Positions 21,743-60,576 of a stretch of DNA of 64,000 nt are shown in pieces. The DNA comes from Euglena gracilis (lineage: Eukaryota): contig CP154954.1 of NCBI GenBank assembly GCA_039621445.1, forward strand, positions 38,053,703-38,117,702, given 5' to 3'. Made by a program: the position numbers and the translations under genes. Position 1 is the stretch's first letter; every line of letters begins with the position of its first letter. The notes under the pieces were generated by a model. The model saw only the letters and a list, made by a program, of their open reading frames with translations, was not told where the DNA came from and ran no database searches.

Positions 21743-21861
21743 ACATATCACATGGCCGAGAAGTGAAAGCCCCTGGAGGGGTTCAAGTTACAAGTATTGG
21801 GCAAGTTTGAAGTCCCTGGTGAAGTTCAAGTTCAAGTGAAGTACAAGACGTGGAGACCGAC

Positions 21862-32287: not shown

Positions 32288-33212
32288 TGTACGTCCCCTG
32301 ACTCTATTCCCACTGCCTGTCGGCCTACTTACACCCTCCCGTGGGAACAGAACCAGGAGAGTAACAAAAAAGAAAATCTTTCACTTAACTATTAGTTTTT
32401 ATTGACTTTGGGCTTATGCAGAGCACAAGGCAAACCAGGTGTGATTTTGGAACTTCAGTTCCAGTAGTGTTCTCCTATCGGAGTTCGAACCTTCAAATCT
32501 TTGATTTGCCCTTTTGGGCTGATGAAACACAAAGCAAAACAATAATACCACCTGTGAAAAGAGAAGGCAGATCCGAGATAGGATAGGCTGTTCCTAATTC
32601 TGCAATTTGTATTGCAGAACATGGAATAGTACTATCTGGCATGACATTGTGCATTTTGCAGTTTGCTGCTATGCACAGTGCCATGTTCATGCTGCCTGGT
32701 ACACATCCCCCTCCCAGGGCTTTGCCCGATTTCCTTACTGGACCAGGCCAGCAAGGACATAGGCAAGGCCTTGAGATAGAGGAACATACACCAGGAAAGC
32801 ATATCTTGGGTCTGCTTCTCCATCACATGGTAAAAAACCAGAAAGGGAAGGAAGGAAGAGAGGGGAACCCAAAAAACCCAAAACGCGCAAAAGAGGTTAC
32901 CTGCTTATGCGGCTAACTACTTATTGCGGTAAAGGGGTGGAAGTGGAAGAGCCCGCTTAGAAAGTGGGGCTGGAAGGTTTTCATTCCAGAAAGTCCCATC
33001 CACCCGGTTTGGGGTGTGCCTATGGCACTTGTGGTGGTCTCGTCCCATGATCGGAAAAGATTGTAGAGGTAGGGTGTGGAAGGAGGGGCACCTGGCCAGT
33101 CATACCTGACCAGGGAAGAAAGCCTATTTACAAAACCAACTGCCGGCGACAGCGATTTTGCCCGGGGGGGGAAAAGGGGAGAGGAATGGGGGGCTGGTCT
33201 AAAGACCTTACA
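32288..33212 (-). repeat. Solo LTR-like copy
   Basis: TGTA...TACA ends. 32288-32706 is near-identical to 45955-46374, which abuts a PBS. No TSD found. Confidence 0.65.
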
Positions 33213-35281: not shown

Positions 35282-38200
35282 TCAGACAGAATATGGTGAG
35301 TGGGCAGAAGACAAGGTGATCTCATCCTTGGAAGAATACAAGCTCCAAACGAGCTGTCTGCTGATTTCTCTGATCAGTGTGAAGGACAGGCCTTGCCAAA
35401 TATCTGCTTCTGCGGCCCGCCGTTGCCAACCTTCCCGCTGCCCCAGAAGGGCTTTGAGGAGGGTGGCCATCAAGGAGCGCGCTTCTTGTCCCATGCCCCC
35501 GTAGCAATCCATGACGAATGGCATCAACCGCCAGCCCAGTCGTCGGCATGTTGCATCATATTTGGCATGCTTTTCAGCTTCCTGTCGTGTTTGCCATTGT
35601 GACAGGCTCTCTGCACTTCGCAGCGGATGACTTTGTGCAAGGGTGTGGCGGACTGTCACATCCACTGCAACGGGTCCATCACTGTCCAAGCGAGGAATGA
35701 AGATATCCCCAGGGCGGGAACGGTCATCGGCTCGTTGTTCTTTACGGGCTGTAAATCCTGCCTTCTGTGTTGTGGTTGTCAGAAAATCTTGGACAGCCCC
35801 GTGCCGCCGGGTAATGAAGTTTGATTTGCAGCAAACGAGGTGATGTCCGAGAAAATCTGATTGTCCAAAGCATTTGGGACAGAGGTTCGGATCGGATTCC
35901 GTTGGTGTGAGAGTCATTCCGAGGGACCAACGAAGTGTGCAGCGGAATTCAGCCGTGGGTAACAGGGTGCGGAGACCTTGAGATGGTGTCAAAGCGGCCC
36001 ATGCCATAGCGTGTGGTTGGCATTGGCTTGCAAAGCGTACAGCATCAGGTCCATTCAATGTGTCCCGAAGTGTTTTCTGGCGGGCAAGCATGCTTTGCTG
36101 ATTCCACCAACGTTGTGAATTGTGTGGAGACTGTGCCTGCGGGATCAAGTTTTTGTCACTGGCCCATTGTGGCAGTGGGACCATTTGACCGAGTTCATTG
36201 AGGGCTGTCCGTAAACAATCGTCAACGTCTTTGGGAAGGATGTCCATGGCAGCGGGCAGGCCCAAGACAGAGGGAGCTCTTCGACAGAAGTCCACCACTT
36301 GAGACAATCTGGCGGGCGCACGTTGAAATAGTGGATCGGAGATTCCCAGTCCACCGCATCTGATGGCCAGGGAAACTTGCAACCATTCTTCTGGGGTGCA
36401 AGGGGAGCCGACCATGCTGCTGAATGTTTCCCGAATAATTCCCGACAATGTCTTGCATGCCGCTGTTGCAGAGGCGATTTTGCAGGCGCGCAAGAGGTCA
36501 TTCACTTTGCAAGCGGATAAACAAAAACGAAGCAAGGTGAATTGCACATGCGATTGAGGTAGGTGCTGAAGTACTGTGCAGGAACGTCGGATGTCTTCAA
36601 TGCGCTTATTCCATACTTCTTCACAGAAGCGGTCATCTTGGGGGTGGTGGACAGGGACCCCCAAAACTTTCAAACCTGAACCGGCAACAAAGGCGGTCAG
36701 TGGTATTTGATGCAAGGGGCTGTCCTGTGGCGTTCCCGGAGGAATGCAAGGGACACCTTCTGTTGATGTGAACGCTGGTCCCCACAAGCGACATTTTGCG
36801 GGGTTCACGGCCAACCCAAGCGCTGCTGCCTCGCGAATCAGAAATACAAGGGCATTGTGTAGTTGGGCGGGTGATCCCAGCAGATGGGCGTCATCCAAAT
36901 ACCATCCCTGCCATTCGACCAAGGGGGAGAGGCCCTCACACAGGTCTTGTACGCCCCAGGCGAAAGCTGCTGGTCCACTTGGGTCGCCTTGCTGAGCCCC
37001 CCTCTGGGAAGGCAGACAATGGTTTCCACAATACAGCTTGCTGTGTTGGGCGTAGCACGAATCCAGCCAAGGGCACACTTCTGGGCATCGTCTGCGGATG
37101 GATTGCAGGATTTTTTCTCGTGACAAAGAGTTGAAGGCATTCCTGAAATCCACTTGAAGCAGCCCCCATCGATTGTCTCTGTCCGAGTGCAGAGTGTCCA
37201 CCATTTGTTGGATTCCCATTGCGATCAGTGGACAAGCGTTCGGCACACCAACGCCACATTGTGGAGGACTCAGTTCTTTCAAAGCGTTTACCACTGTGGG
37301 ATGACGCATGAGACATTTGCCAACCAATCGGCGGAGGGTTTCACCTGCTGCGATTGGGCGAGTGTCTTCATCACACACCGTGTGTTCCACAAGGTTTCCA
37401 AAAGCATCCTCTTCCATTGCTCTTTGTTTGTTCTGTTTTCGCAGAGGTGTCAGCCTGGCGGAGGAAAGAATTGGGGCCATGCTGGGGTGAACACCGTTTG
37501 TAATTGCCCGACAGATGAAGGTATCCAGCACCTCGAGGAGGTCTTCTCCACAAGCCCCTGGGTAGTCTCCAACCATGGCCTTGAGGTGGTCAGGTCTCAG
37601 GCCAGAAGGACCCGGCGCGGATTCCTTTGGGAACCCGAAGATGGCTTTGCGCAGATTTTGTAATCGCTCTTTTGTGCTTTCCGGGTCTGAAGGAAAGGTA
37701 ATCGTTTGGGAAGAATCGGACACTGGGATGTGCGGTGGAGGCTCTGGTGGGTGAAGGTCACGTAGCCTTTGGATCACTTTTGGGTCACTGCTGTTTTGGA
37801 CCCCCTCAGAGGTGAGCTCTCGGCAGGCTTTTGAAATAGCCCCGTGGCCAACAAGGCTTTCAATGCGGGAGAGGAACCGTTCTTCAGTTGCCTTGGCTGC
37901 CAGTGCTGTTTTTTGCCTTGTCTGTCTGCCTTGTTGCTTTTGTGGGAGACTGGAGTCCAGCCATGAATCAAACACAGGGCGGGTGAGATACAGGCGAGCG
38001 CGTTCTGCAATTTTTCTCCCCACCATCGCCCAGTTTGAACGCCCGCCACGCTGCAAAGGACAAAGCACCGCTTTGGGGAAGGCCCACAAGGCGTGCAGGG
38101 TTTCCCAGCCAGGGTCCCTGTTGAAATGCTTCATCAGTTGCAGGTAGGTTTGATTGACATTCAGGAGGGCTCCACGTGGCAGGTATACAAGGGTGCCTCG

Positions 38201-38911
38201 ATCGTCAAAAGAAATTTCCTCAAAAGAGGGATGAAGGGATGTTGGGCATGGAGCAGAGAATGGCGTAACCCCAGCAAGGTGATTTTGGCCAATGGGGCTT
38301 GGTGGGGGTCTAGCTGGGGCTGGTGACGATGCTGCTGCGGTTGTTGCCACAGAGGATGAAGAGCTGGCACCCAAAGGGGGGTTGGAGAAGTTGGAGAAGT
38401 TCAGGAAAGGCGTCGCTTGATTTGCTTGCATCCACATGGCTCCAACATCTGACGGGGGGAAGGATCCTGGTCCTTGTGTGCCAATTGGGTTCGCCATGAT
38501 GACCGTGGAGCACATTGAAGGGAGGCCCTGTTGGCCAAAGAACAACGGACCCGGCAGATTTGGGAACCAAGATCCCCTTTCCAAGGGTGGCGCTGCGGGT
38601 GGTGTTGGTGCGGTCGGGGTGATGGAAATTTGTGATGCTGGCGCCATGTCAACGTCCTCAATCGACACCAATGGGGGCTCTGCGGGTGGTGGTGCGGCTG
38701 GAGGGATGGAGATTTGTGATGCTGGCGCCATGTCAATATCCTCACCCGAAACAAATGGTGGGTCCGTAGCTGGCCCGGGGTTGCTTTCAATGTCCCCGCA
38801 GGTGAGTAAAGACCGACCCCGGCCTGCCCCCCCCGATGCTGCCAGGGTGGGCTGTGGGCTGTCTTTTGCCGGCGTGAAAGGCACCAGCACTTTTCTTTGT
38901 TTGGCTGACAT
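35282..38911 (-). CDS. Intact 1209-aa RT + CCHC + RLE protein with an N-terminal 2A peptide
   Basis: GRGRSLLTCGDIESNPGP; LQVDFRNAFN, GAQQGDPSGP, WYLDD; CPKC..HLVCC; RPGDIF..VDV..EAEKHAKY. Confidence 0.95.
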   Translation of the reverse strand: MSAKQRKVLVPFTPAKDSPQPTLAASGGAGRGRSLLTCGDIESNPGPATDPPFVSGEDIDMAPASQISIPPAAPPPAEPPLVSIEDVDMAPASQISITPTAPTPPAAPPLERGSWFPNLPGPLFFGQQGLPSMCSTVIMANPIGTQGPGSFPPSDVGAMWMQANQATPFLNFSNFSNPPLGASSSSSVATTAAASSPAPARPPPSPIGQNHLAGVTPFSAPCPTSLHPSFEEISFDDRGTLVYLPRGALLNVNQTYLQLMKHFNRDPGWETLHALWAFPKAVLCPLQRGGRSNWAMVGRKIAERARLYLTRPVFDSWLDSSLPQKQQGRQTRQKTALAAKATEERFLSRIESLVGHGAISKACRELTSEGVQNSSDPKVIQRLRDLHPPEPPPHIPVSDSSQTITFPSDPESTKERLQNLRKAIFGFPKESAPGPSGLRPDHLKAMVGDYPGACGEDLLEVLDTFICRAITNGVHPSMAPILSSARLTPLRKQNKQRAMEEDAFGNLVEHTVCDEDTRPIAAGETLRRLVGKCLMRHPTVVNALKELSPPQCGVGVPNACPLIAMGIQQMVDTLHSDRDNRWGLLQVDFRNAFNSLSREKILQSIRRRCPEVCPWLDSCYAQHSKLYCGNHCLPSQRGAQQGDPSGPAAFAWGVQDLCEGLSPLVEWQGWYLDDAHLLGSPAQLHNALVFLIREAAALGLAVNPAKCRLWGPAFTSTEGVPCIPPGTPQDSPLHQIPLTAFVAGSGLKVLGVPVHHPQDDRFCEEVWNKRIEDIRRSCTVLQHLPQSHVQFTLLRFCLSACKVNDLLRACKIASATAACKTLSGIIRETFSSMVGSPCTPEEWLQVSLAIRCGGLGISDPLFQRAPARLSQVVDFCRRAPSVLGLPAAMDILPKDVDDCLRTALNELGQMVPLPQWASDKNLIPQAQSPHNSQRWWNQQSMLARQKTLRDTLNGPDAVRFASQCQPHAMAWAALTPSQGLRTLLPTAEFRCTLRWSLGMTLTPTESDPNLCPKCFGQSDFLGHHLVCCKSNFITRRHGAVQDFLTTTTQKAGFTARKEQRADDRSRPGDIFIPRLDSDGPVAVDVTVRHTLAQSHPLRSAESLSQWQTRQEAEKHAKYDATCRRLGWRLMPFVMDCYGGMGQEARSLMATLLKALLGQREGWQRRAAEADIWQGLSFTLIREISRQLVWSLYSSKDEITLSSAHSPYSV

Positions 38912-39124
38912 TGGGTTGTTTTTTTTCCGAACGGCTGAGTGGGAGCCTGGGGATTGTCAAGTGCATTGCGCTGAGGTGTCCCGTTTGCTGGCCAGCTGAA
39001 CCGGGCAGAACTGGCTGGATGGGGGGCCACTGTTGCAGGCCACAATGTGGAGGAGCATGGTTCGCCCGTGTTGAAACCCCGCGCTATTTTGGCTGGAAAT
39101 CTGCTGAGCCCTTGGGCAAATTTG

Positions 39125-45100: not shown

Positions 45101-45682
45101 TAACCCACCCTCAACAAAAAGTTGATGTGGCGCAACCGCCTCAGAATCAAATGTGCCTATCGGCATTGGTGCGAGATCTCGCTGGGGGGGAAAACTGTCA
45201 GCCGATCGGCTTTCCAACAAGAGAGATTGTGCCCGTCGGGCTATTGGTTGCTCGATAGAGCTGGGAACGGTGAGGGAATGCTCTATAGAGCTGGGGGTTG
45301 GAGGTAAGTTGCTCGATAGAGCTGGCCACTGTGGGGGATGCTCGATAGAGCTGGACACCTTTAGGTGTGGCACCCATTGCGTGGGGGGTTGCTCGATAGA
45401 GCTGTGGGGGGAATGCTCGATAGAGCTGGAAAACGGGGTGGGGGAATGCTCGATAGAGCTGGAAACCACTGGGGTGGGGGGATGCTCAATAGAGCTGGGA
45501 GTTGCCCCATATAGGGCCACACACCTGGGTTGGAGCATATACTCCTGTGACAAATCTTCATCAAACTTTCTCAAAGAACTAATCAATTCTTGATAATCAA
45601 TGACTGGGTTGGTGCTTGAGCTCTGCATAGTTTTATTTGCATAAACAGAAACAGACACAAGCAAACCCCAAAAGGTAAGCAA
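42103..45682 (-). pseudogene. Frameshifted gag (and possible protease) of an LTR retroelement
   Basis: Consecutive ORFs 44666-45682, 44242-44709, 43865-44272 and 42690-43643. Capsid-like WDGDPTTWKQFFRDWEYY; protease-like RIRTTDGTRKEVTGVATL; located downstream of a PBS. Confidence 0.65.
45248..45500 (-). repeat. Tandem GCTCGATAGAGCTG (SSIEH) units inside the gag-like ORF
   Basis: Eight copies with variable spacers. Confidence 0.85.
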
Positions 45683-45941
45683 AGGAACAAACTCAGAAGG
45701 ATGTGGCAGCGTATACTGCCCAGAGCCTCCTGAAGCTTGTACCTGTGCTTGGAAGTTGGCTCCAAACAGCTCGTGGATGCTTTGTAGCCTATAGGCTCAG
45801 CAACACTCACTGTTTGAAGTCACCTGTTAAGATGAGGGGGAGAAGGGGGGAGAAGGGGCGTAGGAAAGAAACCAAATCTGCTACCAAGTGTACGCCTTGG
45901 TAGTCTTTCTCTTTGTGAAGTATGTGTAGGTTCGTAACCTA

Positions 45942-46374
45942 CTCTGCTACCAAGTGTACGTCCCCTGACTCTATTCCCACTGCCTGTCGGCCTACTTACA
46001 CCCTCCCGTGGGAACAGAACCAGGAGAGTAACAAAAAAGAAAGTCTTTCACTTAACTATTAGTTTTTATTGCCTTTGGGCTTTATGCAGAGCACAAGGCA
46101 AACCAGGTGTGATTTTGGAACTTCAGTTCCAGTAGTGTTCTCCTATCGGAGTTCAAACCTTCAAATCTTTGATTTGCCCTTTTGGGCTGATGAAACACAA
46201 AGCAAAACAATAATACCACCTGTGAAAAGAGAAGGCAGATCCGAGCTAGGATAGGCTATTCCTAATTCTGCAATTTGTATTGCAGAACATGGAATAGTAC
46301 TATCTGGCATGACATTGTGCATTTTGCAGTTTGCTGCTATGCACAGTGCCATGTTCATGCTGCCTGGTACACAT
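45942..46374 (-). repeat. Truncated 5' LTR plus tRNA-iMet PBS
   Basis: Minus strand reads ...GGACGTACA-CT-TGGTAGCAGAG. The LTR matches the copy starting at 32288. Confidence 0.75.
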
Positions 46375-49300
46375 AAACCCAACGGGCGTCATGTTTGACG
46401 AAAAATGCCGGGAGCCGAGGTCTGGTCCGCCCAATTCCCCGGAAAATGCTCCACTGCAGGAAACCTCTTTCAGCAGCTGGAAGAAAAAATTCCTGCATCA
46501 GCGGCAGGAGCGACGGCAGCAGGGGGGCACGCTGGTCCACGAGCGGGCGGCACGTAAATTGACCAAAGTCGTGGACCAATGGCAACAGATGGGACGAAAT
46601 CGTGACATCCCGGCCAAGGGCCCTTGGGGGCTGCTTTTTTCTGGTGACATCAACCCCCTGCCTGGACCAACGGCGGGCCCGTGTGGTGAATGTGATCTCC
46701 TGCATGTCTTGGTGGAACAACAAGTACAAGAGATGTTCAAAATACGGGCGGATGAGGAGCCTGCAAAAGGACCAGACGGGACGTCACCTCTCTTTCAGGA
46801 AAGAGAAGCCTTCTGGGTACAGTGCACCCTGTGTGGGTGGTCAAGGCAAACAATAAATTCTGGGTGGTGCTTGTCCCACGTACAGCATTGTGCAGAATTA
46901 CAAAACATTCTTTGCGGCCCGAGAAACACATTGCTGCAGGTGCCAGAAGAACACCTAGCCACAGGCAGGGAAGGTGTGGCTTTCAGCGGTGATGTCCCCC
47001 TGAACCCGGGCCCCAGGAAGGAATCTGAAGCTCACAAAAGAAAAGCACATGGCCATGGGAAAACTGGGCGGGAAGAAGCTGTTCTGACCCATGGTGATGT
47101 GGAGCAGAATCCGGGGCCTATGGAAGGCAGCATGGAGGTGGACTTGGGGGGGTGTCACACCTTACAAGGACCGTGTCCCAAAGGTTTGCGCCATGCATGG
47201 GATGACATAGCACATGACCGAAGGACCACGTTGACATTGATCCCCAGAGGAGCGCTGGGGGAAGTGGCACGAACCCTGACCCTCTTGTTCAGACGATTAC
47301 GACAAGAAGGCTCTTGGGAGGCCTTTCACTCTTTGTGGTGTTTTCCAAAGGCAGTCCTGGCAAGCACTGGTCAGGGTGGACGATCCCACTGGGCCAGAAT
47401 TGGGCGGCTGCTGTGTACCAGAGCCAAGGCGTACCTGGAAAAAGACGTCCATGAATGCTGGGAGTCGTCCAGGCCGTCGGAAGCGAATTTCGGATCCAGC
47501 GTCAAAACCCGATCAGCAAAAAACTAAAGAGGAGGAAATCCAACAAGAAGCCTTTCTCAACAGAATGCAGAAACTGGTGGAAAGAGGGGCAACGGCAAAG
47601 GCGCGTCAGGCAATGTTGTCAGACGGAGTCCAAGATGCAAATGATGCAAAAATTCGTGAGCGTTTACGTCTGCTTCACCCATCAGAAGATCCGCCCGGGA
47701 AAGGGCCCCCCGATGGAAGAGTGCGCCTGCCAGTCCCTGAGGGACAAGAAGGAGACGCCCACATGAAAAAGGCCGTGAGACGGGCCATCCTGTCCTTCAA
47801 AAACGAAACAGCAGGAGGACCGAGCGGGCTGACCATCTCAAAACATTGATATACGCACAGGCTGCGGGCTGTGGTGATGATTTACTGGAAGAAATCTCCG
47901 CCTTTGTCTTCTCGGCAATCCAACAAGGACTGCCTTTGGAAATGGGGTCCATCTTGGCAGGAGCACGACTGACGCCGTTGAGAAAGAAGAAACCACAAAC
48001 AGATGCTGCCGGTAATGTGATGCTGCATACGGACAACGATTTGCAACACGAAGGAACCAGGCCAATTGCGGCAGGAGAAGTTTTAAGACGGTTGCTTGCC
48101 AAAGTTCTGTTAAAAGAAGCCACTGTACGAAACACTCTGATTGACGGGCTGCCTGGGCAAGTCGGTGTAGGCCATTCTGACGCTTGTGCTCTCACCAGTA
48201 TTGCACTGCAACAAATTGTTCAAGGACTGCAAAAGGCAGGGAAAACAGAATGGGCTGTTCTGCAGCTGGATTTTGCAAACGCCTTCAATCAATTGAAACG
48301 GGAACCCATGTTACATCAAGTGCGACAGCAGGTACCACACATGACAGCTTGGACTGAATCATGCCATGGTTCACATTCCCCTTTGTATTGTGGAAACACA
48401 AGCCTGAGGTCCAAAACGGGAGTTCAACAAGGGGACCCTTGTGGCCCGGCTCTTCTCTGCATTGCGGTGCAACCTTTGGTCAACAAAATTGCAGAAATGG
48501 TGCCATGGCAGTGCTGGTACCTGGACGACTGCCATCTAATTGGATCCATGGAACAGCTGGATCGTGTGGTGCGCATGCTTTTGGCAGACGGTCCTGCGAT
48601 TGGGGTCAGTCTGAACATGGACAAATGTCGGCTGTGGGGCCCAGCCGTCAATGATGCCTTTCGCAGATTGCCACAGGGAAGCAGTGTGTTGCAACGAATA
48701 CCGGCAACATCCTTTGTGGAGGGATCTGGAATCAAAGCCCTGGGGATACCTGTGACGTACCCGGGAGATGACACGTTTGCGCGATCCATTTGGCAGGACA
48801 GATTGAAAGCTTGTGAAAAATTGTGCTACTTGCTGCAGTTCATTCCTTCCGGCCACATTCGTTTCCACCTGTTGCGCCATTGCATTCCCAGCTGCAAAGT
48901 AAATGATCTTCTACGAGGAACACCGCTTGAACTCTTCTGAAGATATGGTACGGCTCTTCTCTGCCCTGGTCCGTGACAGTTTGAGCAATATTGCACGAAG
49001 ACAGCTCACTGAAGCTCGATGGGAGCAATCCACCATCCCCATTCGACTGGGAGGCCTGGGCCTGCACGATGCAATAAAGACCAGGCCAGTGGCCAGATGG
49101 GCTGCTATTTTGGATTTCTGCAAAAGAGCAGAACACAGTGTCTCTTTCCCGAAAGAACTTGAGCTATTACCATCAGACTTCGTTCTTACAGGTCGCACAG
49201 TCGAACAAATCACGGGGGAGAGTCATTTGACAACTTTGATACTACAGGACTCCAATCGGATTCCTCACCTGGGGAAAGTGGAAAGTTCCCAGAAATTCTG

Positions 49301-49904
49301 GAACGACAAGCTCTCTGAGAAACGAGGAGCTGACTTGGTAACGCATTCCACCGGGGCTGACAAGGTGCGTATTTTGAGCCAACAGAAACCTCATGCATTG
49401 GCGTGGGTGGCAGCAAACCCTTGTGCAGCAAAAAAGACATTGATGCCCCCAGGTGAATTCCGAGCAGTTCTACGATGGACTCTGGGATGACTGTTGTGGC
49501 TCTACACAAAGGTTTGGAGGCAAAGTGTCCACGATGTGAGACAGTGATGGGTGATCAAGGGAATCACCTGGTTTGTTGCACAAAAAAACAATTTGGCACG
49601 GCGACATGCAGGAATTCAAAACTTCATCCTGCAGATGGCACAGGCGGCAGGCTATACTGCTCGGCGTGAAGAGGGCACTGGAGATGGAAGACGACCTGGG
49701 GAGGTTTTCATCACTAGGTTCGATGCAAACGGCCCGGCTGCAATAGATGTCTCAGTGCGGCATCCACTGGCGCCGTCCCACCCAGTGACTGATCAAAGTT
49801 GGGAACGCTGGCATGAAAGACAGGAGAAAGAAAAAGTGACAAAGTACAAAGATGTATGCAGCAGGCTGGGATGGTCACTTGTGCCCCTGGTCCTGGATTA
49901 TTTT

Positions 49905-52815
49905 GGTGGCATTGGTGATGAAGGCAGAATCTTTTTGGGGACCTGCATCCGAGCCATCCTGGGTCAGAAGGAGCCCTGGGAAAGAAGATCCTGCGAAGCA
50001 GAGTGCTGGCAAGGACAAAGCATTGTGTTGGCCCGAGAAGTGGGTCGACAACTGTCGTGGGCTGAATGCCTCGGATCTGAAGATATGCAAAGTCCTGTTC
50101 TGGCGCATCAACCTTATAATCTGGACTAAAGCACAACCTGCAGGAGGACACAAAGAATGTTTCCCGCAGGCTGCTGAAAATCAAAGGCTACTGCTGAGAC
50201 CGTCCCATCACAATGATGAACAGCAGTATAGTATGTAAGCAACATACCACAATTTGGGACAGCAGACAGAACCGACAAAGATCGGAAATGCATATGACGC
50301 ACAAAAAAACGGTCTGAGAATACTTCCTCAGCTCCTCCAGTCCCCCCATCGCCGGCCCATCACCCTTGCTCTATGTACTTTGCACTTTGCGGTCCACTGG
50401 CCACCCAGGACCTCTTCCAGCCATGACCAACAACATCGGGAAAACAAGGCTTAGGACACAAAGAGCTCTGTCACAACAAACAGCTTGCACTTGCATTGCA
50501 CACGATTCTCATCGTATCCCAGAAACGATGAGTCACAAAAGCCTGGTCTGAAAACACTTCATCTTCACGCAAGAAGACAAAACAGGATTTGGCCCACCAT
50601 GCTGGCCCATCCTGGCACCATGTAATCTGAGGCACCACCAATCACCCGCGTTAGTTATGACCACAAAGATCGGAAATATGGCACATGAGACACAAAAAAG
50701 ATCGACAACGGCCCTCTTACCCTGTGACACGGCTTTGTACATTACGCATATATATTGAACCCGTAACTCCACGTGGTGGCATTGGAGATGAAGACAGAAT
50801 CTTTTTGGGGACCTGCATCCGAGCCATGTTGCGGCAGAAGGAGCCCTGGGAAAGAAGATCCTGCGAAGCAGAGTGCTGGCAAGGACTAAGCATTGTGTTG
50901 GCCCGAGAAGTGGGTCGACAACTGTCGTGGGCTCAATGCCTGGGATCTGAAGATATGCAAAGTCCTGTTCTGGCGCATCAACCTTATAATCTGGACTGAA
51001 GCACAACCTGCAGGAGGACACAAAGAATGTTTCCCGCAGGCTGCTGAAAATCAAAGGCTACTGCTGAGACCGTCCCATCACAATGATGAACAGCAGTATA
51101 GTATGTAAGCAACATACCACAATTTGGGACAGCAGCCAGAACCGACAAAGATCGGAAATCCAGCATATGACGCACAAAAAACCGGTCTGAGAATACTTCC
51201 TCAGCTCCTCCAGTCCCCCCATCGCCGGCCCATCACCCTTGCTCTATGTACTTTGCACTTTGCGGTCCACTGGCCACCCAGGACCTCTTCCAGCCATGAC
51301 CAACAACATTGGGAAAACAAGGCTTGGGACACAAAGAGATCTGTCACAACAAACAGCTTCCATTTGCATTGCACACGATTCTCATCGTATCCCAGAAACG
51401 ATGAGTCACAAAAGCCTGGTCTGAAAACACTTCATCTTCACGCAAGAAGACAAAACAGGATTTGGAGCACCATGCTGGCCCATCCTGGCACCATGAAATT
51501 TGAGGCACCACCAATCACCCGCGTTAGTTATGACCACAAAGATCGGAAATATGGCACATGAGACACAAAAAAGATCGACAACGGCCCTCTTACCCTGTGA
51601 CACGGCTTTGTACATTACGCATATATATTGAACCCGTAACTCCACGTGGTGGCATTGGAGATGAAGGCAGAATCTTTTTGGGGACCTGCATCCGAGCCAT
51701 CCTGGGGCAGAAGGAGCCCTGGGAAAGAAGATCCTGCGAAGCAGAGTAGGTCTAAGCATTGTGATGAATGTCCGAGGTCCCCTTAACCACAGACCAGACT
51801 TCTGCGCCCCATTCCTTTACTTGACATCCCTTTCACTGAAATCTCTTTCCCAAAATCCCACTTCCAGCAGCAATGACCAAACTTGAAATAAACTTGCGCC
51901 GCAGACAAAATCAAACAAATACACTCTCAGGAAAGTAATCCCAGACAATAGAGTGAACAGTGTATGTTGACAGCTACCTACAGACAGCGCCATCATTTTT
52001 TCTGTGAATCACGATCTGCCTGTTTGAATTAGGCTTCAGCCTGTGATTTCATGGTGACCATAAAAATGCACCTGGACCACTCACATGTTGGCCCGAGAAG
52101 TGGGTCGACAACTGTCGTGGGCTCAATGCCTGGGATCTGAAGATATGCAAAGTCCTGTTCTGGCGCATCAACCTTATAATCTGGACTAAAGCACAACCTG
52201 CAGGAGGACACAAAGAATGTTTCCCGCAGGCTGCTGAAAATCAAAGGCTAATGCTGAGACCGTCCCATCACAATGATGAACAGCAGTATAGTATGTAAGC
52301 AACATACCACAATTTGGGACAGCAGCCAGAACCGACAAAGATCGGAAATCCAGCATATGACGCACAAAAAACCGGTCTGAGAATGCTTCCTCAGCTCCTC
52401 CAGTCCCCCCATCGCCGGCCCATCACCCTTGCTCTATGTACTTTGCACTTTGCGGTCCACTGGCCACCCAGGACTCTTCCAGCCATGACCAACAACATCC
52501 GGAAAACAAGGCTTGGGACACAAAGAGCTCTGTCACAACAAACAGCTTGCATTTGCATTGCACACGATTCTCATCGTATCCCAGAAACGATGAGTCACAA
52601 AAGCCTGGTCTGAAAACACTTCATCTTCACGCAAGAAGACAAAACATGATTTGGCCCACCATGCTGGCCCATCCTGGCACCATGTAATTTGAGGCACCAC
52701 CAATCACCCGCGTTAGTTATGACCGACAAAGATCGAAAATATGACACATGAGGCACAAAAAAGATCGACAACGGCCCTCTTACCCGGTAAGCCGGTGACA
52801 CCGCTATGTACATTA

Positions 52816-52820
<5 letters not shown>
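49905..52820 (+). repeat. ~870-bp tandem triplication of the RLE C-terminus plus 3' UTR
   Basis: Units start at ~49905, 50775 and 51648. The third is interrupted by ~51760-52086. Confidence 0.88.
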
Positions 52821-52855
<35 letters not shown>

Positions 52856-52868
52856 TATATATATATAT

Positions 52869-52913
<45 letters not shown>

Positions 52914-52952
52914 ATATATATATATATATCTATATATATATATATCTATATA

Positions 52953-53001
<49 letters not shown>

Positions 53002-53072
53002 TTCTCTCTCTCTCTATCTCTCTATATCTCTCTCTCTCTCTATCTCTCTCTCTCTCTCCTCTCTCTCTCTCT

Positions 53073-53118
<46 letters not shown>

Positions 53119-53146
53119 CCTCTCTTTCTCTCTCCCTCTCCCCCTC

Positions 53147-53212
<66 letters not shown>

Positions 53213-53315
53213 CTCTCCTCTATCTCCTCTCTCCCTCTCTCTCCCTCTCTCTCCCTCTCTCCCTCCCTCTCTCTCATATATATATATGTATATATATCTC
53301 TATACATATATATAT
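52819..53315. repeat. (TA)n/(CT)n compound microsatellite
   Basis: Directly visible in the sequence. Confidence 0.97.
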
Positions 53316-53510
53316 TGGAACACTGTTGATTGCCCAAGAGCTAGAGTGTCTAAAAAAAAATATTAAATTACAATTAAAATAAAAAATTAAATTAATTATC
53401 ATAACCGCCTGCGGACCTTCAACTCCAGTAGGCTGTGCCACTGGTCGGTGGATTCGGTTCGCCCCACCACCGTTCTCGCTTTCTGGTCCTCTTAATTCTA
53501 GCAAAAAAAA

Positions 53511-56500
53511 GGCCTGAAAACGCCCCCTCAACACCACCACTGGCCTGAAAAGGCCCTGGGCCTGAAAAGGCCCCATCTGCTACAGGGCCTGACAAGGCCC
53601 GTCCAGCCAGTGGGCCTGAAAAGCCCCCCCCCGCCTTTGGGCCTTCAAAGGCACCTCCATTTGGGCCTGCAAAGGCCCCTCATCTTGGGCTTCCAAAGGC
53701 CCCCCCTTTGGGCCTGCAAAGGCCCCCCATCTGCCAACCATTAAGTGCTACTTTCAGCTCCAAGGTCTTATTTTCTGTGTTCTGCATTGCATCCCAAACC
53801 TTTGATCAATTGAAGTGGCAAACCCCCAGTTTTCACAGCACATGTTACACCAAAAGCTGTGACACATTTTGCAGCAGTTTTGACTTGACATTGAAAAACA
53901 TTTTGCCACCCCAACCCCTCAGTGACACTTTTTGCAGCAGTTTTGACTGTACATTAAAAAACATTTTGCCACCCCAAGCCCTTAGTAACAACGTTTTACC
54001 CCAGTGTCCTGCAAAGTCACTGGGCCTGCAAAGGCCCCCCTGTGACACCATTTCGGTCTGTTGCATTTTGCCCCAGTGGCCTGCAAAGGCCCTAGGCCTG
54101 CAAAGGCCCCCCTCCAACACCATTTTGCTCCAGTGGCCTGCAAAGGCCCTGGGCCTGCAAGCAGCATTTTGTCCCAGTGGCCTGCAAAGGCCATGGGCCT
54201 GCAGGCCCCGCCTTGACACCATTTTTGCTCTCAGCCTGAAAAGCCCCCGACAAACTGGCAAACCATGTTCCTCCACATTTTGGCCTGCAACAGTGGGCCC
54301 CCAGCCAGACAGCACATCCACTTTTTGGTCTGCAACAGTGGCCCCCCGCAGCCAGCCAGTTCTGCCAGATTCTGCTGGCCTTCAACCTTCCCTCAGCAAT
54401 ATGAACTTGACAACCCCCAGGTTACCTCTCCGCTGACCGGAAAAGACCACCCAACGTCGGCCAAACAAAGAAAGTGCTTGTGCCTTACACTCCTGCGAAA
54501 TACAGGACACAGCCTACACTTGTGAGTGGCCTTGCTGCACAGCAACTTTTGGCATGCCAGCCTGTGGCATTACAACATTTGGCATTACAGATTGGTGAAT
54601 TAAGGATTTCCAGCAGAGAAGTTCCTAATTCATTTTTCTGGTAGGGCAAATCCCATGACTTGTTTGCGTGGCGCTGTGGACTGGACTTGAAGGAGTGTTC
54701 TGCTGTATTTGTGCATTTGGCTTATGCTGCGCGCCAAGGGGAAGAAGAATTGGGAAAGTCCCCCTGGGATTGGGTGTCCCAAGTGCCTGGCAAATTCAAA
54801 GGGGAGATTATGCAAAGTCTGCTGGGTGTGCAAGTTCTGTGTTCTGAAGGTTGAAGAATGCCAGTGTTGCGGAAGCTGCCATCTGCATGCCAGCAATTGC
54901 CATTGTGGGCATGCTGCCCGGATCTTTCACAAACAAGTCAGTCCAGCCTGTACAAACAAGTTCTCTGCCCAAGATGCTCAGAAAGTGCATGATCTGGGCA
55001 GTCATGCTGAAGATTGCAATGCCAGATTTGGTCATGGGAAGGTTTCGGACAGAAGTGTTGAAGACAATTTTGGACATGGAGATTCCAAATTCAGACATGC
55101 AATCGAGATGTGCGACAAGGGGGTGCAGACAGAAGGAAAAGCCAGAACAAGGGGAAGAAGAGAGAGGAGGAAGAAAGTGAAGGGGAAGTAATGGCAAGCT
55201 GGACAGGTCAGATTCGAGGTATTTGGCTGATGTTTGTGGCATGCCGCGTGCTGTGTCTGTGGCCAATTCTGGGGCAGTAAACCCAATAAATTACACATGT
55301 CTGTGGGAGATGGCCGCTGAGGGCATGTGGCCATGCCGCGGTGGGTGTTTGCTGGGTGGAAATCTCATTAAATGGCTCGACAGTGGGTTGTGGTGAGCCG
55401 CGGTTGACCAAATTAACTAGAATTTAAATGCCCCAGTTTGCCCATTTCACCCCCTGCTTGGGACCCCACCCACCTCTGGGCCATTTTGGGTGGAAGGGTA
55501 GGTTTCCACCCATGATGGTCCAAGGGGCATCTTTGGGATGTCTTCCCCTGAAAAAGAAGAGGTCATCAGGGGAGGAGGTTCCAAGGGGGTGTGGGTGCCC
55601 TTCCTCTGCAGCCTGCCTGTGTGTTTGCTGTAGGAGTGTCCACCTGAGGGAGCTTTGCCCCAAGACAGGTGCAACACTTCGAACCGTATTTAAAATTCCT
55701 ATTTTTTTATTTTACGGGTGTGACTGCAACCAAGGCCACTTTTTAATTTTTTGACTCGCTTTGTTGGGAGTTGGACCCAGCAAAGCTCGCCCGGAGAGGG
55801 GAGTGTGAGTGGCCTTGCTGCACAGCAACTTTTGGCATGCCAGCCTGTGGCATTACAACATTTGGCATTACAGATTGGTGAATTAAGGATTTCCAGCAGA
55901 GAAGTTCCTAATTCATTTTTCTGGTAGGGCAAAATCCCATGACTTGTTGCGTGGCGCTGTGGACTGGACTTGAAGGAGTGTTCTGCTGTATTTGTGCATT
56001 TGGCTTATGCTGCGCGCCAAGGGGAAGAAGAATTGGGAAAGTCCCCTGGGATTGGGTGTCCCAAGTGCCTGGCAAATTCAAAGGGGAGATTATGCAAAGT
56101 CTGCTGGGTGTGTAAGTTCTGTGTTCTGAAGGTTGAAGAATGCCAGTGTTGCGGAAGCTGCCATCTGCATGCCAGCAATTGCCATTGTGGGCATGCTGCC
56201 CGGATCTTTCACACTGGCAGCATCGGGGGGAGCGGGCCGAGGTCGGTCTTTACTCAGCTGCGGGGACATTGAAAGTAACCCCGGACCTCCTACAGACCCA
56301 CCATTTGTTCCGTGTGAGGATATTGACATGGCGCCAGCATCACAAATCTCCATCCCTCCTGCTGCACCACCGCCCGCAGAGCCCCCGTCGGTGGCGGGTG
56401 AGGACGTTGACATGGCGCCAGCATCACAAATTTCCATCCCGAGGGCCGGCTTCGATCGGTACCATCTTCTGGACGCGCGGCTTCGAGTCCCGATGAGCTA

Positions 56501-57778
56501 AACTCCGATCCAGGGGTGCACGGGACTTGAACCAGCCATGGCATACGGCGCTGCCAGGCGGGGTAAGGAATGGCTGCCGTATGGCGGGAAGTTCCGATGG
56601 CGCCGAGGTAGAAATCAGCAACCAGAGGCTCGACCCTGGCGTGCCTGATGGGTAAGGGCCGGCGAACCATAGATTCAACGGCGTTTGCCCACCTGACGTG
56701 TCACGATTAAACCATTGCGGCTTCGGCCGAGCAGTGACACCAAAGACAAGCAACCCCTATCAAGCACGCCATCGCCAAGCATCAGGAGCTGAGGCAAGGG
56801 ATGGAGGACTTCGAGTGCCTCGAACCCTAGGGCTAATGCCCCCTGGCGGAGTGTAGCTCCACATCCGAGAAAGTGAAACGCTTGGGTCCAGCAAGTTTTT
56901 AAAAAAAAGTCGGCCCACCACCGTTGGAGGAGATTTGAGAGCAAAAAAGGGCATTTGTCATGGATTGCTACGGGGGCATGCGACAGGAAGCGCGCTCCTT
57001 GATGGCCACCCTCCTCAAGGCCCTTTTGGGGCAGCGGGAAGGGTGACATCGGCCGCGGAAGCAGGCATTTGGCAAGGCCTTCCTTCACACTAATGAGAGA
57101 AATCAGCAGATAGCTCGTTCGGAGCTTGTATTCTTCCAAATATGAGATCACCCTGTCTTCCGCCCACTCACCATATTCTGTCTGAAGGCCTTTGAGCTCT
57201 CAACAAAAATCACCAACATTGACCTCTCACCTGCCGTTTACACCCCAAGTTCAGATTACAAAATGAGCAAAGAAGGCACAACTCAGTAACCCCTAGTAAC
57301 CCCTTGAGCAGAGCCACACGCCGAGCCAAAGACATATCAACGGATCACAAAGACGCGGAGAGAAGCAAAACACACAACAGCCAAAAACCCGACACAAACA
57401 CGCCATCCCGTTTCAAAAGAGGTACAAACGCCCCCTCCCCGCCCAATATATATTGAAGGTGACCTTTGCTCATCTTCCTCTAACCACTAACCTCCGCACC
57501 CTGAACAAGTATCACTCAGCACTCTTTTGTACATTACACCCAGAGTATAAACAACCCGCGACGTGTGGCGGCACAGGGAGTAACAAGGGGGTTCCTCTTG
57601 TGGCGAGGGCCAAAAGAGACGTTTCCCTGGCCCGGGGCACGATTTGGGTGAAGCTGTGCTACCTACCGTGTGCTTCTGCAAAAAAGGCGAGGGCGAAAAG
57701 AGACGTTTACCTGGGCCCGGGGGACGGTTTGGGTGAAGCTGTGCTACCCACCGTGTGTTCGTTATCACTAAAAAAAAA
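53511..57778 (+). mobile_element. CRE-type element, copy 4 (relative of copy 2; internally deleted and interrupted)
   Basis: Hairpin array 53511-54210; PCSSTFWPATV and SAKQRK as in copy 2; 2A at 56235-56288; RLE end at 56955-57185; 3' motif A and an A-tail. Confidence 0.8.
54521..56213 (+). mobile_element. TRIM-like non-autonomous LTR element
   Basis: ~410-bp near-identical LTRs TGTGA...TCACA (54521-54931, 55804-56213) with a purine tract before the second LTR. It splits codons PT|LAASGG of copy 4. Confidence 0.85.
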
Positions 57779-57789
57779 GAGCCCATGTT

Positions 57790-60576
57790 CTCACGGCATT
57801 GGTGGAGGAAGGCGCACTGTCCAAGGCCGCTAAGCTGTTGGTGTCAAATGGGCTTGTCAACTCGCAGGAACCAGGTGTGGAAGCCGTACTGAGGGACCTC
57901 CATCCCCAGCACAGCCACACTTGGTCCCGGCAGGGGATTGGCCCACCTCGATTGCCTGCCGCCTGGTGGACGAGGGCATGGACGAAGAGGAGAGCAACGA
58001 GCAGTGGTCCAAGCGGGCGGACCATCTGGGCTGCGTCCAATCCACCTCAGTGAAAGTTGCCGAAAGCTGGGGGGGGCCTGGTCCAAGCCCTCGGCAAGCT
58101 TGCTGCGACGGCCCTGACCACATCATTCCCGGAGAGCGTGCGAGAAGTGCTATGCGCCTCCACGCTCATCCCGCTCCGCAAGAAGGATGGGGGGGGTGCG
58201 GCTCATTGCTGTCGGGGACACCCTCTGGCGAGTGGTGGGCAAGTGCCTTCCCCATTCTGAAGCGGTGACGATAGAGTTGGGAGCCCCACAACCGCGGCAG
58301 TGCGGGGTGGGAGTGCGCAACGCCGCCGAGAGATGGTGGGCATGCGCCTGCAACGCTGCGTCTAGCCAAGCCACCTCCAAGGGGAGAACGACTACGTGGT
58401 GTTGCAGGTGGATATGCGCAATGCCTTCAACTCCATCAGCAGGGATGCAATGCTCCGGGGGTGCTTGGCCAAGGTACCCACGGCGTACAACTGGCTGCGC
58501 TTTTGCTACAGTGGATTAAGTCCGTTGTTTTGCCAAGGGCGCTTCCTATGTACAAGCCAGATCGGAATGCATCAATGCGACGCATTGGGCTTTGCACTGG
58601 GCTTGGACTACGCCCTTGACCAGTGATTTGCCCGGGACTTGGCATGGGAGCCTTGGTACCTCGACGACGGCCACATCGTGGGGAAACCAGCGTTGGTGTT
58701 GGCCCGCCTCCATGGCCTCGGCACGGTCTGGGAGCGAGTAGGCCTCCACCTCAATTTGGCCAAGTGCAAATTTTGGGGACCTGGGATGCAAACGGTCAAT
58801 CAAGCCGGGCCACATTACCCAGAAGGTTTGGCAAAAGGCCACTTGGGACGACAAGTGCCCGTGATTCCCTTTGGAGGACCGAGGGGCATCACGACCCTGG
58901 CCGTCCCAATTGATGCCCCGCGGGAGCATCGCACAGCACAAGAGGACACGCCAAGAGCACCGCAATGCCAAGCTGTATAGGAAGAGACCGTGGACATGGC
59001 GACCTTGCTCTTGGAACGGCTCAGGGGATACCCAGAGGGGCAAGTGCGGCACCCACTTTTGCGGTAGTGTCTTGACGGATGTCTGGTGGTCCAGCTCCTC
59101 CGATCAACAGAGAGAGAAAACACACGGGACTCCCCGCTCATTCTCAGGGCACGGCTGCAGGAAGCCATACAAGATCCCCTCGGACTGGGAATCACCGAAA
59201 GTTCATGGGATCAGGTCTCCCTGCCCATCCGCCAAGGAGGACTCGGAATCTCGGACCCCGAAGTGTTGCAACCCGCGGCACGTATGGCGGCCTTGCTGAA
59301 TCTGGGGATGCACGGCAGCCAAGCGGTGGGGGTGCCAGCCTCGGCGTTGGCAACCCCATCCCCGGACATGCAAGACACGATACAACGGTTGCGGCAACAG
59401 CTTGGCCCCAACATGGATCCCGTGGCCAGCTGGCTCGCGGGCACCACCCCACTCTCCTCCGCAGCACCAGAACACGCCACCCAACGGTGGTGGGCGTAGA
59501 AAGTGGCGTAAAAGCAGAGCCAGCGAGTGGACGCGGTCGGCTCTGCCAGGGACCGGGTGAGACGGGCTTGCCAAAAGGGACCGGTGGCAACGGGATGGCT
59601 GCAGACTTTGCCCAGCAAGGCACAGCACACAGCTTTCTCGGACACCCAATACTGGCTGCTACTGCGGTGGTGGCTTGGCCTGCCCATCCTCCCTTCAGGG
59701 GTCACGTTGCCGGGGTGGTCCCGTGTCCCGGGGTCACTTCGTCTGCTGCGAGCAGAAAGGAAATACCCAACGGCACAATGCATTCCGAGATGCTTTTGCG
59801 GCGATGTGTGCCTGGTACAATATTGCGGCGGAGAAGGAGGTAGAGTGTTTGGCGAACAAAAGACCAGCCGATGTTCTCCTCATCAACATGTCACGGGAGC
59901 AACAAGTGGCAGTCGATTTCGTCTACAGCCACCCCGTGGGGCTGGGAGAGCACCCACTGGTGGTGGACAATGCCCGCAGGCATTGCAACCAGGTGGAAAC
60001 CAGGAAAGTGCAAAACGGATGGGCCCCTTCTGCAAAGGGGTGGAGCTTCTCACCCTTCGGCCTGAGCACATGGGGAGGCCTGGGTACCTCTGCCAAGGCG
60101 GTGCTGTCTGAGGTCACCAAAATGGCCACCGCAGACATGCGGGGATGGCAAAGACAAGGGCCCTGCAAGAAATGCAGGTAGCATTATCGGAGACACTCAT
60201 GCGCCACGTGGCGCGGAAGCTATCCGCCAGGGACCGCGTGGAGGAGGCCCTGCACCCATGGTAAGTCCCCAACTCCCACCGCAGACCACACCAAAAGCGA
60301 GCAAGACCAAGACCAAGAGGGCCACAACCCACAAAGTGCGGAGGTTCACTACGGAAACACCTCCCCGCACAAAAAAAAACCAAATAAAAGAGAAGCCGCC
60401 AAAAAAAAGAGCCCACACGCCAGGCGAAAGGTATCCGGCCAACGAGGCGACAAAGGGGAGTGGAGCCGGCAAAAGCAAGACACACGCAAAGTGTAGCCCG
60501 CCCGACCTGGACTCCACAAGGTGAGAAGAGAGTGCACGCGCGACCCAGCAAGCCGGCTATAGCCCCTAAAAAAAAG
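57790..60576 (+). pseudogene. Degenerate CRE-type element of a more distant family
   Basis: VEEGALSKAAKLL, LQVDMRNAFNSISR, WYLDDG, LPIRQGGLGI, KRPADVLL..VAVDF, with many stops and frameshifts. A-run at ~60568. Confidence 0.85.

Follow-up and report, generated by a model that had tools for sequence, protein, structure and literature searches.

Three 2A-like motifs and a conserved C2HC module in the leader of a predicted R2-like retrotransposon of Euglena gracilis

Organization of the leader of element X

We analysed a stretch of 64,000 nucleotides (nt) of the Euglena gracilis genome (contig CP154954.1 of assembly GCA_039621445.1, positions 38,053,703 to 38,117,702; hereafter the window), in which a retroelement, here called element X, begins at 46374/5 on the forward strand. 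Its leader open reading frame (ORF; 46391..47527, +, standard code, 378 amino acids [aa]) contains three motifs resembling 2A (StopGo) peptides, all in the same frame, and the observation of three such motifs in one leader, made in an earlier note on this DNA, is thereby confirmed. On the sequence evidence, we read this segment, with a probability of about 0.65, as the beginning of the only ORF in an R2-like retrotransposon lacking long terminal repeats (non-LTR retrotransposon; long interspersed nuclear element, LINE) that is built as a StopGo/2A polyprotein and encodes its reverse transcriptase (RT) protein downstream of the last site. The features of element X are as follows.

46374..46390 (+): 5' end of retroelement X (junction at 46374/5) and untranslated start of 16-17 nt
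46391..46612 (+): leader N-terminus, 74 residues from the first in-frame ATG, without a Pfam match
46613..46669 (+): 2A-like site 1, AKGPWGLLFSGDINPLPGP, residues 75-93, core DINPLPGP, non-canonical
46670..46906 (+): conserved C2HC module core, about 80 aa, from the leave-one-out profile and an AlphaFold2 core with a predicted local distance difference test score (pLDDT) above 90
46823-5, 46832-4, 46877-9 and 46889-91 (+): codons of the putative ligands C145, C148, H163 and C167, respectively
46907..46957 (+): variable linker from the module to site 2; length and sequence vary in the alignment of relatives
46958..47014 (+): 2A-like site 2, ATGREGVAFSGDVPLNPGP, residues 190-208, core DVPLNPGP
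47015..47062 (+): spacer of 16 residues within the doublet of sites 2 and 3
47063..47119 (+): 2A site 3, TGREEAVLTHGDVEQNPGP, residues 225-243, canonical, directly before the RT protein
47120..50129 (+): RT protein of X in broken frames, by tblastn to elements A and B of the window
Downstream of site 3 and before RVT_1 (+): N-domain of the RT protein
47942-48940 (+): RVT_1 (Pfam, 8.8e-15)
About 49.5 kb (+): CCHC motif in a separate frame, CPRCETVMGDQGNHLVCC
49635-50129 (+): PD..D..K-like endonuclease, RPGEVFI...AIDVSV...KVTKYK
49904..52795 (+): tandem copies of the ORF end and 3' region of X, unit of about 870 bp (repeat families D2, D3, D4 and D7)

The earlier note had placed the motifs at 46622-47119, of which the end is exact; the start, 46622, precedes by 9 nt the L with which the quoted peptide begins. 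The third motif was rightly described as canonical, because GDVEQNPGP (47093-47119) matches the D(V/I)ExNPGP core. Site 2 departs from this core by a replacement of E with P, with NPGP retained, and site 1 by replacements of E with N and of the essential N with L. All three sites share the GR(G/E) upstream context of the family, and a distance of 35 residues separates sites 2 and 3, which make up a doublet. Homology to the other retroelements of the window begins at residue 241-252, just past site 3. Recent duplication of the three 2A-coding stretches was rejected because only 22-29 of 57 nt are identical between any two of them. In the six frames of the window, D[VI]xxNPGP was found five times and GD[VI]xx[NL]PGP six times, compared with 0 in each of 200 dinucleotide-type shuffles for the former and 0 in shuffles for the latter.

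According to the available text on deep mutational scans of P2A and F2A (bioRxiv 10.64898/2026.09.24.754024), substitutions of D12, E14 and N16 all reduce activity to 0.6 or less, with E14H in P2A as the sole exception, and the residues of NPGP are intolerant, with activity below 0.2 (the same preprint and work cited there). Because of this intolerance at E14, N16 and NPGP, site 1 of X is taken as probably dead and site 2 as probably weak or partial, with more uncertainty for the latter.

Conservation of the C2HC module

Between motifs 1 and 2 lie CGEC (C98, C101), CTLC (C145, C148) and HVQHC (H163, C167), as the earlier note had described, but not all of the zinc ligands that it had named are conserved. 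C145, C148, H163 and C167 are invariant in 16/16 and 18/18 aligned modules. At the position of CGEC, relatives have GPSG, GPAG and similar sequences, and some sister contigs of X carry C98S; CGEC was therefore rejected as a source of zinc ligands. The invariant alignment columns in the 16 modules are P17 and G18 (the PG of the upstream site), P54, C71, C74, H89 and C93. Across the family, the putative zinc ligands follow the pattern C-x(1-2)-C-x(13-17)-H-x(1-8, mostly 3)-C, which in X takes the form C-x2-C-x14-H-x3-C. A gag-type zinc knuckle was rejected because the spacing in X is not C-x2-C-x4-H-x4-C.

A phmmer search with leader residues 1-243 against 1.84 billion representative sequences yielded six matches at E<=0.001 (down to 4.9e-20), five of which hold the module (P0001, P0002, P0003, P0005 and P0006). 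The sixth, P0004, is an unrelated repeat protein and was discarded. P0001, the best of these matches, is the closest relative of the leader (41% identity), and its N-terminus is, by eye, similar to that of the X leader. Profile searches of a collection of 5.8 billion clusters gave additional matches: 21 came from longer proteins, where scoring covered the 8000 candidates with the most words in common, and 4 from proteins similar in length. With a core-only profile, 28 modules were found in 25 proteins, or 24 modules in 21 proteins without the 4 members of 90% clusters, and these 24 non-redundant modules share roughly 23-37% identity. The stretch between motifs 1 and 2, for which the earlier note had proposed a hidden Markov model search, is thus a conserved module without a Pfam family: Pfam gave no match on the leader and no shared family on 16 modules.

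Against a profile built without X, element X scores 81.7 bits over the full profile length (independent E-value 3.8e-24 at Z=1000), which is as high as any member, and it retains P54 as well as all four ligands. Elements A, B and C, the other members of the same RT family in the window, match only the 2A ends of this profile. At metagenome loci, a single-protein scan found no relatives, and a scan with an RT profile found six loci, none with the module. In an Atlas comparison, P0008 matched only generic RT clusters (0.80-0.83), which do not point to a taxon.

2A sites and cassettes in the relatives

Of the 24 non-redundant modules, 22 are preceded by a 2A-like octapeptide whose end lies 0-5 residues away, and in some cases this end overlaps the profile-defined start by 1-2 residues. 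The exceptions are P0005, which has no such site, and P0017, which has one 31 residues before the module. Downstream, 19 of the 24 modules are followed by another 2A-like site at a distance of 11-172 residues, and the remaining five proteins end first. The canonical D[VI]ExNPGP is present in 16 of the 22 upstream and 14 of the 19 downstream sites. The upstream motifs are therefore neither absent nor randomised in relatives; according to the earlier note, their absence or randomisation in sister copies would have refuted its reading. Their persistence at 23-37% identity is more telling than that in near-identical sister copies would be. All sites are kept among the members of 90% clusters, and the E>Q variant DVQPNPGP is kept in all four members of the P0019 cluster (1598-1810 aa). 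The departures seen in X also have counterparts: the E>P of site 2 recurs as DVPPNPGP in the intact 1481-aa relative P0011, and P0002 has DINPNPGP before its module, at the position homologous to site 1 of X.

At least two 2A-like motifs are present in 21 of the 24 non-redundant relatives, with four in two of them and five in one. Doublets with sites 19-47 residues apart occur in 5 of the 24; one of these is P0022, which has two sites at the place where P0019, closely related to it, has one. Four proteins contain two tandem modules, each bounded by sites (P0002, P0006 and P0007, and P0025, which begins inside the first module). Three long relatives, P0008, P0017 and P0019 (1601-1849 aa), have the same order: an N-terminal part, which in P0017 includes the SLBP_RNA_bind match, 2A, the C2HC module, 2A, a Dam-like domain with an NPPF motif, 2A, and finally the N-domain, RT, CCHC and endonuclease. 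In P0010, P0011, P0012 and P0016, the Dam-like cassette lies ahead of the C2HC module. P0008, P0017, P0019 and P0011 are intact ORFs of 1481-1849 aa with 3-4 2A sites and with matches to RVT_1, Dam-like and SLBP_RNA_bind domains; the SLBP_RNA_bind match reaches 78.1 bits in P0020 and 50.6 in P0017. Dam-like and SLBP_RNA_bind cassettes, each 2A-bounded, are found among P0008, P0017, P0019, P0011, P0020 and P0023, and an SLBP-like RNA binder in a LINE is seemingly unreported in the literature searched.

The doublet of sites 2 and 3 in X sits where P0008 and P0017, its nearest full-length relatives, hold the Dam cassette. The N-domain and RT motifs that follow the last 2A in these two proteins are similar, by eye, to those of X, and loss of the Dam cassette in the X lineage is plausible. 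C2H2-like and CxxC...CxxC fingers lie between the last 2A and the N-domain in P0003 (residues about 230-330) and P0016 (about 440-480) and recall the N-terminal DNA-binding fingers of R2 proteins.

Boundaries and classification of element X

In contigs of four public sequencing runs on 46000-48000, the abundant repeat upstream of X ceases to match at 46373/4. Two other copies of this repeat in the window read ...TACACAT followed by CCCCCTCCC, and the X locus reads ...TACACAT followed by AAACCCAACGGGCGTCATG (beginning with AAACCC). Sister contigs show a different upstream flank on other copies of X, so that two distinct 5' flanks have been observed. Element X thus begins at 46374/5, with the ORF 16-17 nt on, and therefore the whole three-motif leader is part of the element. 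An Rfam search of 45500-53000 detected no hepatitis delta virus (HDV)-like ribozyme at the 5' end, with only low-complexity microRNA-like matches below threshold.

The RT of X is 47-54% identical to those of elements A and B (tblastn). An RT profile was built from six full-length family proteins, including the intact 1224-aa ORF of element B, and its best PDB matches are R2 proteins (5.8e-10, 9.4e-10 and 2.6e-6), with LINE-1 ORF2p at 0.0076. Pfam detected no apurinic/apyrimidinic endonuclease (APE) domain (Exo_endo_phos) in X or in four full-length relatives. The C-terminal CCHC and PD..D..K columns are invariant in the alignment of family RT proteins, and we take them, by a motif definition rather than by a profile, to be the CCHC motif and endonuclease of X. 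Because the RT profile matches R2 proteins best, the APE domain is absent and the protein ends in CCHC and PD..D..K, X is classified from its sequence as an R2-like LINE of the restriction-like endonuclease (RLE) type.

Sister copies of element X

Element X is multi-copy with a fixed 5' end, and contigs 95-99% alike span the whole leader. Run X6 contains one 930-nt contig over 46656-47586 with 35 differences from the window copy, and run X1 contains up to 12 distinct contigs over single leader positions. Contigs of run X17, which may be an RNA run, cover parts of the leader. At 47518 and 47827, the sister contigs differ in length from the window copy, by 1 nt and 7 nt respectively, and the frame of the window copy changes (2 to 0 to 2) exactly at these two positions. 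By this frame arithmetic, the common form of the family would read from the leader into the RT unbroken.

The following counts refer to the best-supported 40 of 243 sister-copy differences. The whole leader shows 14 synonymous and 14 nonsynonymous differences, 7 of the latter in the linker of residues 173-189, and the module core shows 5 synonymous and 3 nonsynonymous ones (C98S, V112I and P133A). None of these 40 differences lies in the three motif cores, except for one at site 3 that alters the P codon silently. For this selected subset, the counts suggest constraint on the module. In addition, P78 is replaced by R in sister contigs, which yields the GRxG context of the family at site 1, and the M after site 3 reads V in sister contigs, so that a conserved restart codon is absent there. 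In each of runs X1 and X3, a single contig links 46897 with 47122 and skips 224 nt (linker and sites 2 and 3); this variant may lack sites 2 and 3 or carry a diverged replacement, and could represent a subfamily with a different 2A region.

Predicted fold of the module

AlphaFold2 models of the X and P0008 modules have the same confident core (pLDDT above 90), with a predicted alpha-beta-beta-beta-alpha topology in both. The predicted order is a helix, a strand, a long loop with a conserved GPxGxS, a beta-hairpin with the two Cys and a helix with the His and Cys. C71 and C74 are predicted to occupy the end of strand E66-71 and the turn after it, and H89 and C93 to be on helices H84-92 and H94-101; the second model has the same predicted Cys/His layout. 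Foldseek searches against PDB, with both models, and against BFVD gave no matches at E<=0.001, and the best E-value in PDB was 0.6-0.65. The weak matches comprise zinc-ribbon ribosomal proteins and, recurrently, many double-stranded RNA-binding domains (dsRBDs; E 0.7-2.9, template-modelling score 0.15-0.40), whose topology resembles that predicted for the module in both models. A profile search of PDB gave only insignificant fingers (At2g23090, 0.077; UBZ region of Pol kappa, 0.41). In C2HC beta-beta-alpha fingers of the UBZ4 type, such as that of Pol kappa, the H and last C lie on a helix, as predicted for the module, but there is no significant sequence or structure match between them.

The released module product would be acidic in 14 of 16 members, and an ORF1p-like basic chaperone was rejected on this basis. 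The module may instead be a small zinc-stabilised adaptor or a domain resembling those that bind RNA duplexes.

Surroundings of element X in the window

The window has no match to a dinoflagellate spliced-leader motif, which is not a firm indication of the host. It is largely transposon sequence and contains, in addition to X, the following elements.

35282-38956 (-): element B, same RT family, with an intact 1224-aa ORF
21823-26030 (+): element A, same RT family
About 56130-60180 (+): element C, same RT family
27643-28920 (-): Ty3-like fragment with RT_RNaseH_2 (8e-23), RT_RNaseH and Integrase_H2C2

Elements B, A and C each have a short leader that ends in one canonical 2A (LLTCGDIESNPGP, ILSCGDIQPNPGP and LLSCGDIESNPGP) and lack the C2HC module; repeated DIDMAPASQISI units follow the 2A site in both B and C. 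Direct repeats at 54521-54931 and 55804-56213 (99-100% identical, 1283 bp apart) are located just upstream of the leader of element C. The abundant repeat at 46000-46373, of which X abuts a truncated copy, is also present at about 32530-32736 and about 14300-14360. It has many internal deletion variants among contigs, and its summed word depths in runs X1 and X3 are 1e5-9e5, compared with roughly 1e3-1e4 for element X. At the other end of X, tblastn with the C-terminal ORF gave further matches at 50664, 51537 and 52085. The last roughly 110 codons and the 3' region are repeated about three times, with an insertion in the third unit, and a long block of TA/CT microsatellite (52800-53380) marks where the array stops.

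The leader as part of a proposed StopGo polyprotein, and alternative explanations

In the proposed scheme, the T2A-like sites of the family, GRGxxLLxCGD(V/I)ExNPG/P, would delimit exchangeable accessory cassettes ahead of the RT protein, namely the new C2HC module, about 80 residues long, an adenine methyltransferase of the Dam-like type and an RNA-binding domain resembling SLBP. From one mRNA and one ORF, the upstream product would be released after NPG at each working site, and translation would resume at P. Termination by some ribosomes at a site would lower the yield of everything downstream, and because this would happen at each site, the accessory proteins would be in excess of the RT protein and might serve as a one-ORF substitute for ORF1. 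In X, site 3 would free the RT protein, and the C2HC module would mostly remain fused to the 92 N-terminal residues in a leader protein that would measure about 207 aa, or 242 aa should site 2 fail as well. StopGo activity, zinc binding, product stoichiometry and module function are here predicted from the sequences.

The earlier note had offered two possibilities: a polyprotein that releases a small zinc-binding peptide, or serial turnover of 2A motifs in which only the RT-proximal one stays canonical. The former is supported at the family level, the module being bracketed by 2A sites in distant relatives, and the X copy is a degraded member whose only canonical site is the RT-proximal one. 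In X itself, release of the module is doubtful because both flanking sites are non-canonical, with L for N and P for E. Serial turnover fits the X copy and the doublets and variants of relatives but fails as a general rule, given the majority of canonical sites on both sides of the module.

Several points weigh against the polyprotein interpretation. The window copy of X is a frameshifted pseudogene, and with both module-flanking sites non-canonical, its leader may be decaying. The N was lost in 1 of 22 upstream sites, that of X only, and the sister-copy evidence on L90, like the synonymous and nonsynonymous counts, covers the best-supported 40 of 243 differences. The relatives are metagenome or transcriptome contigs, and the Dam-like matches score 22.9-28.3 bits against a Pfam cut-off of 28.1, which only P0011 passes. 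The acidity of the module is at odds with a role as a nucleic-acid chaperone of the ORF1p type.

Some of these points would also be expected if the upstream part were a decaying relic in which only site 3 matters, the module and sites 1 and 2 being unselected and carried as a long leader or left untranslated. The degenerate flanking sites and the frameshifts of the window copy agree with this explanation, as do the NPGL and QPGP of P0001, the closest relative of the leader, and the fact that window elements A, B and C do with a short leader, one 2A and no module. On the other hand, X retains the four ligands and P54 and scores as high as any member in the leave-one-out test, the reading frame of its leader is open starting 17 nt within the element, the three nonsynonymous differences in the module core are conservative and outnumbered by the five synonymous ones (best 40 of 243 differences), and the X family is young and multi-copy. 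We regard a relic as unlikely. The opposite possibility, that all three sites are active and translation gives an N-peptide of 92 aa, a free C2HC protein of 115 aa, a spacer peptide of 35 aa and the RT protein, would require that non-canonical cores be tolerated through the upstream context or the host ribosomes. Such cores do occur in intact relatives (DVPPNPGP and DIQQNPGP in the 1481-aa P0011, and DVQPNPGP in 4/4 of the P0019 cluster), GVESNPGP and GVEPNPGP are found in P0010 and P0016, and 2A activity is reported to be context-dependent in the available text of bioRxiv 10.64898/2026.09.24.754024. The same text, however, gives activity below 0.2 for NPGP substitutions and tolerance of only H at E14 in P2A. 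Besides the decayed P0001, N is lost only at the downstream site of P0014 (DVEAKPGP), and in no relative is it lost at the upstream site, unlike in X. Activity of all three sites is accordingly quite improbable.

The sites may alternatively act mainly as translational attenuators that, through stalling, termination or reduced abundance, keep RT output low, with stacking compounding the effect and product separation being secondary. This explanation is compatible with a polyprotein rather than exclusive of it. It draws on a proposal that ORF2 can be down-regulated by 2A in place of ORF1 (PMC3894237, in the part available) and on a report, likewise available in part, that most of the tested retrotransposon-associated 2A-like peptides lowered protein abundance (bioRxiv 10.64898/2026.06.17.732966). 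The doublets with nothing useful between their sites in 5 of 24 relatives are also in agreement with it. It leaves unexplained, however, why, in 22 of 24 cases, a conserved folded module starts 0-5 residues past a site, and we consider it improbable as the main function. Chance resemblance or an artefact of a non-coding stretch, for which the shortness of the motifs is the only argument, was refuted by the shuffles (5-6 matches compared with 0), the shared GR(G/E) context, the leave-one-out profile and the module homologues found by phmmer (down to E 4.9e-20); its probability is negligible.

More tentatively, and with confidence somewhat below an even chance, we propose that R2-like LINEs of a eukaryotic lineage use StopGo sites as module boundaries in the manner of picornaviruses. 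Cassettes would be gained, lost, reordered and duplicated, and the ratio of accessory to RT proteins would be set by the sites, through both their number and their quality. The C2HC protein, acidic and with a predicted dsRBD-like topology, would then represent a new class of accessory factor rather than a chaperone of the ORF1p type.

Comparison with known systems

The 2A peptides are known in APE-type non-LTR retrotransposons, including L1Tc, Ingi, CR1, L2, Rex1 and others (Odon et al. 2013, PMC3708506), and in LINEs with a single 2A they have been proposed to down-regulate ORF2 (PMC3894237). As far as these sources are available, APE-type LINEs with an N-terminal 2A resemble X in having an in-frame site upstream of the RT protein and no separate ORF1. 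They have one short 2A leader, whereas X is of the RLE type with three sites (up to five in a relative) and with folded cassettes between sites in the family. R2 and other RLE-type LINEs share with X the single ORF and the order of RT, CCHC and PD..D..K endonuclease, and N-terminal zinc fingers occur in relatives P0003 and P0016; 2A sites or 2A-delimited cassettes were not found described for them in the literature searched. Picornavirus polyproteins (Luke et al. 2024, PMC11512398, available text) likewise contain several StopGo sites per ORF, which vary in number by insertions and deletions and of which some are mutated and inactive; these are RNA viruses, however, and the segments between their sites are unrelated to the C2HC module.

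The family consensus xGRGxSLLxCGDVExNPGP aligns with the T2A tags (Thosea asigna virus 2A) of PDB constructs (GRGSLLTCGDVEENPG), from which the X sites depart in the upstream part (GLLFSGD, GVAFSGD and AVLTHGD) and, in two cases, also in the core. Retrotransposons carrying DAM (bioRxiv 10.64898/2026.05.21.726589) have, like the relatives of X, a Dam-like adenine methyltransferase with the NPPF motif. In the available text, they are DIRS and LTR elements, and a term search of that text gave no mention of 2A; a Dam cassette is absent from X itself. PMC12338488 mentions eukaryotic genes that have 2A up to three times but, in the available text, does not analyse them, and 2A sites along the ORFs of RT elements and accessory N-terminal domains on ORF2p-like proteins are described in the accessible parts of bioRxiv 10.64898/2026.09.24.754024 and 10.64898/2026.06.17.732966. 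The literature searched holds no description of the C2HC module or of 2A-bounded cassettes in RLE-type LINEs, although the supplements of 2A surveys may hold such proteins.

Implications

The new elements here are an RLE-type LINE family with 2A sites, up to five of them in a relative, and predicted folded proteins between the sites. The C2HC module represents a new small protein family, the ends of which are set by 2A sites and which should therefore be easy to express. The core variants of the family (E>P, E>Q, E>N, loss of D and N>L) form a natural series in one shared upstream context, which may help to map the tolerance of StopGo, and the capture of adenine methyltransferases by retroelements is now linked to LINEs. 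If the sites work, a cellular retrotransposon makes several proteins from one mRNA without ORF1, as picornaviruses do, and the 2A-bounded arrangement would permit the exchange of cassettes.

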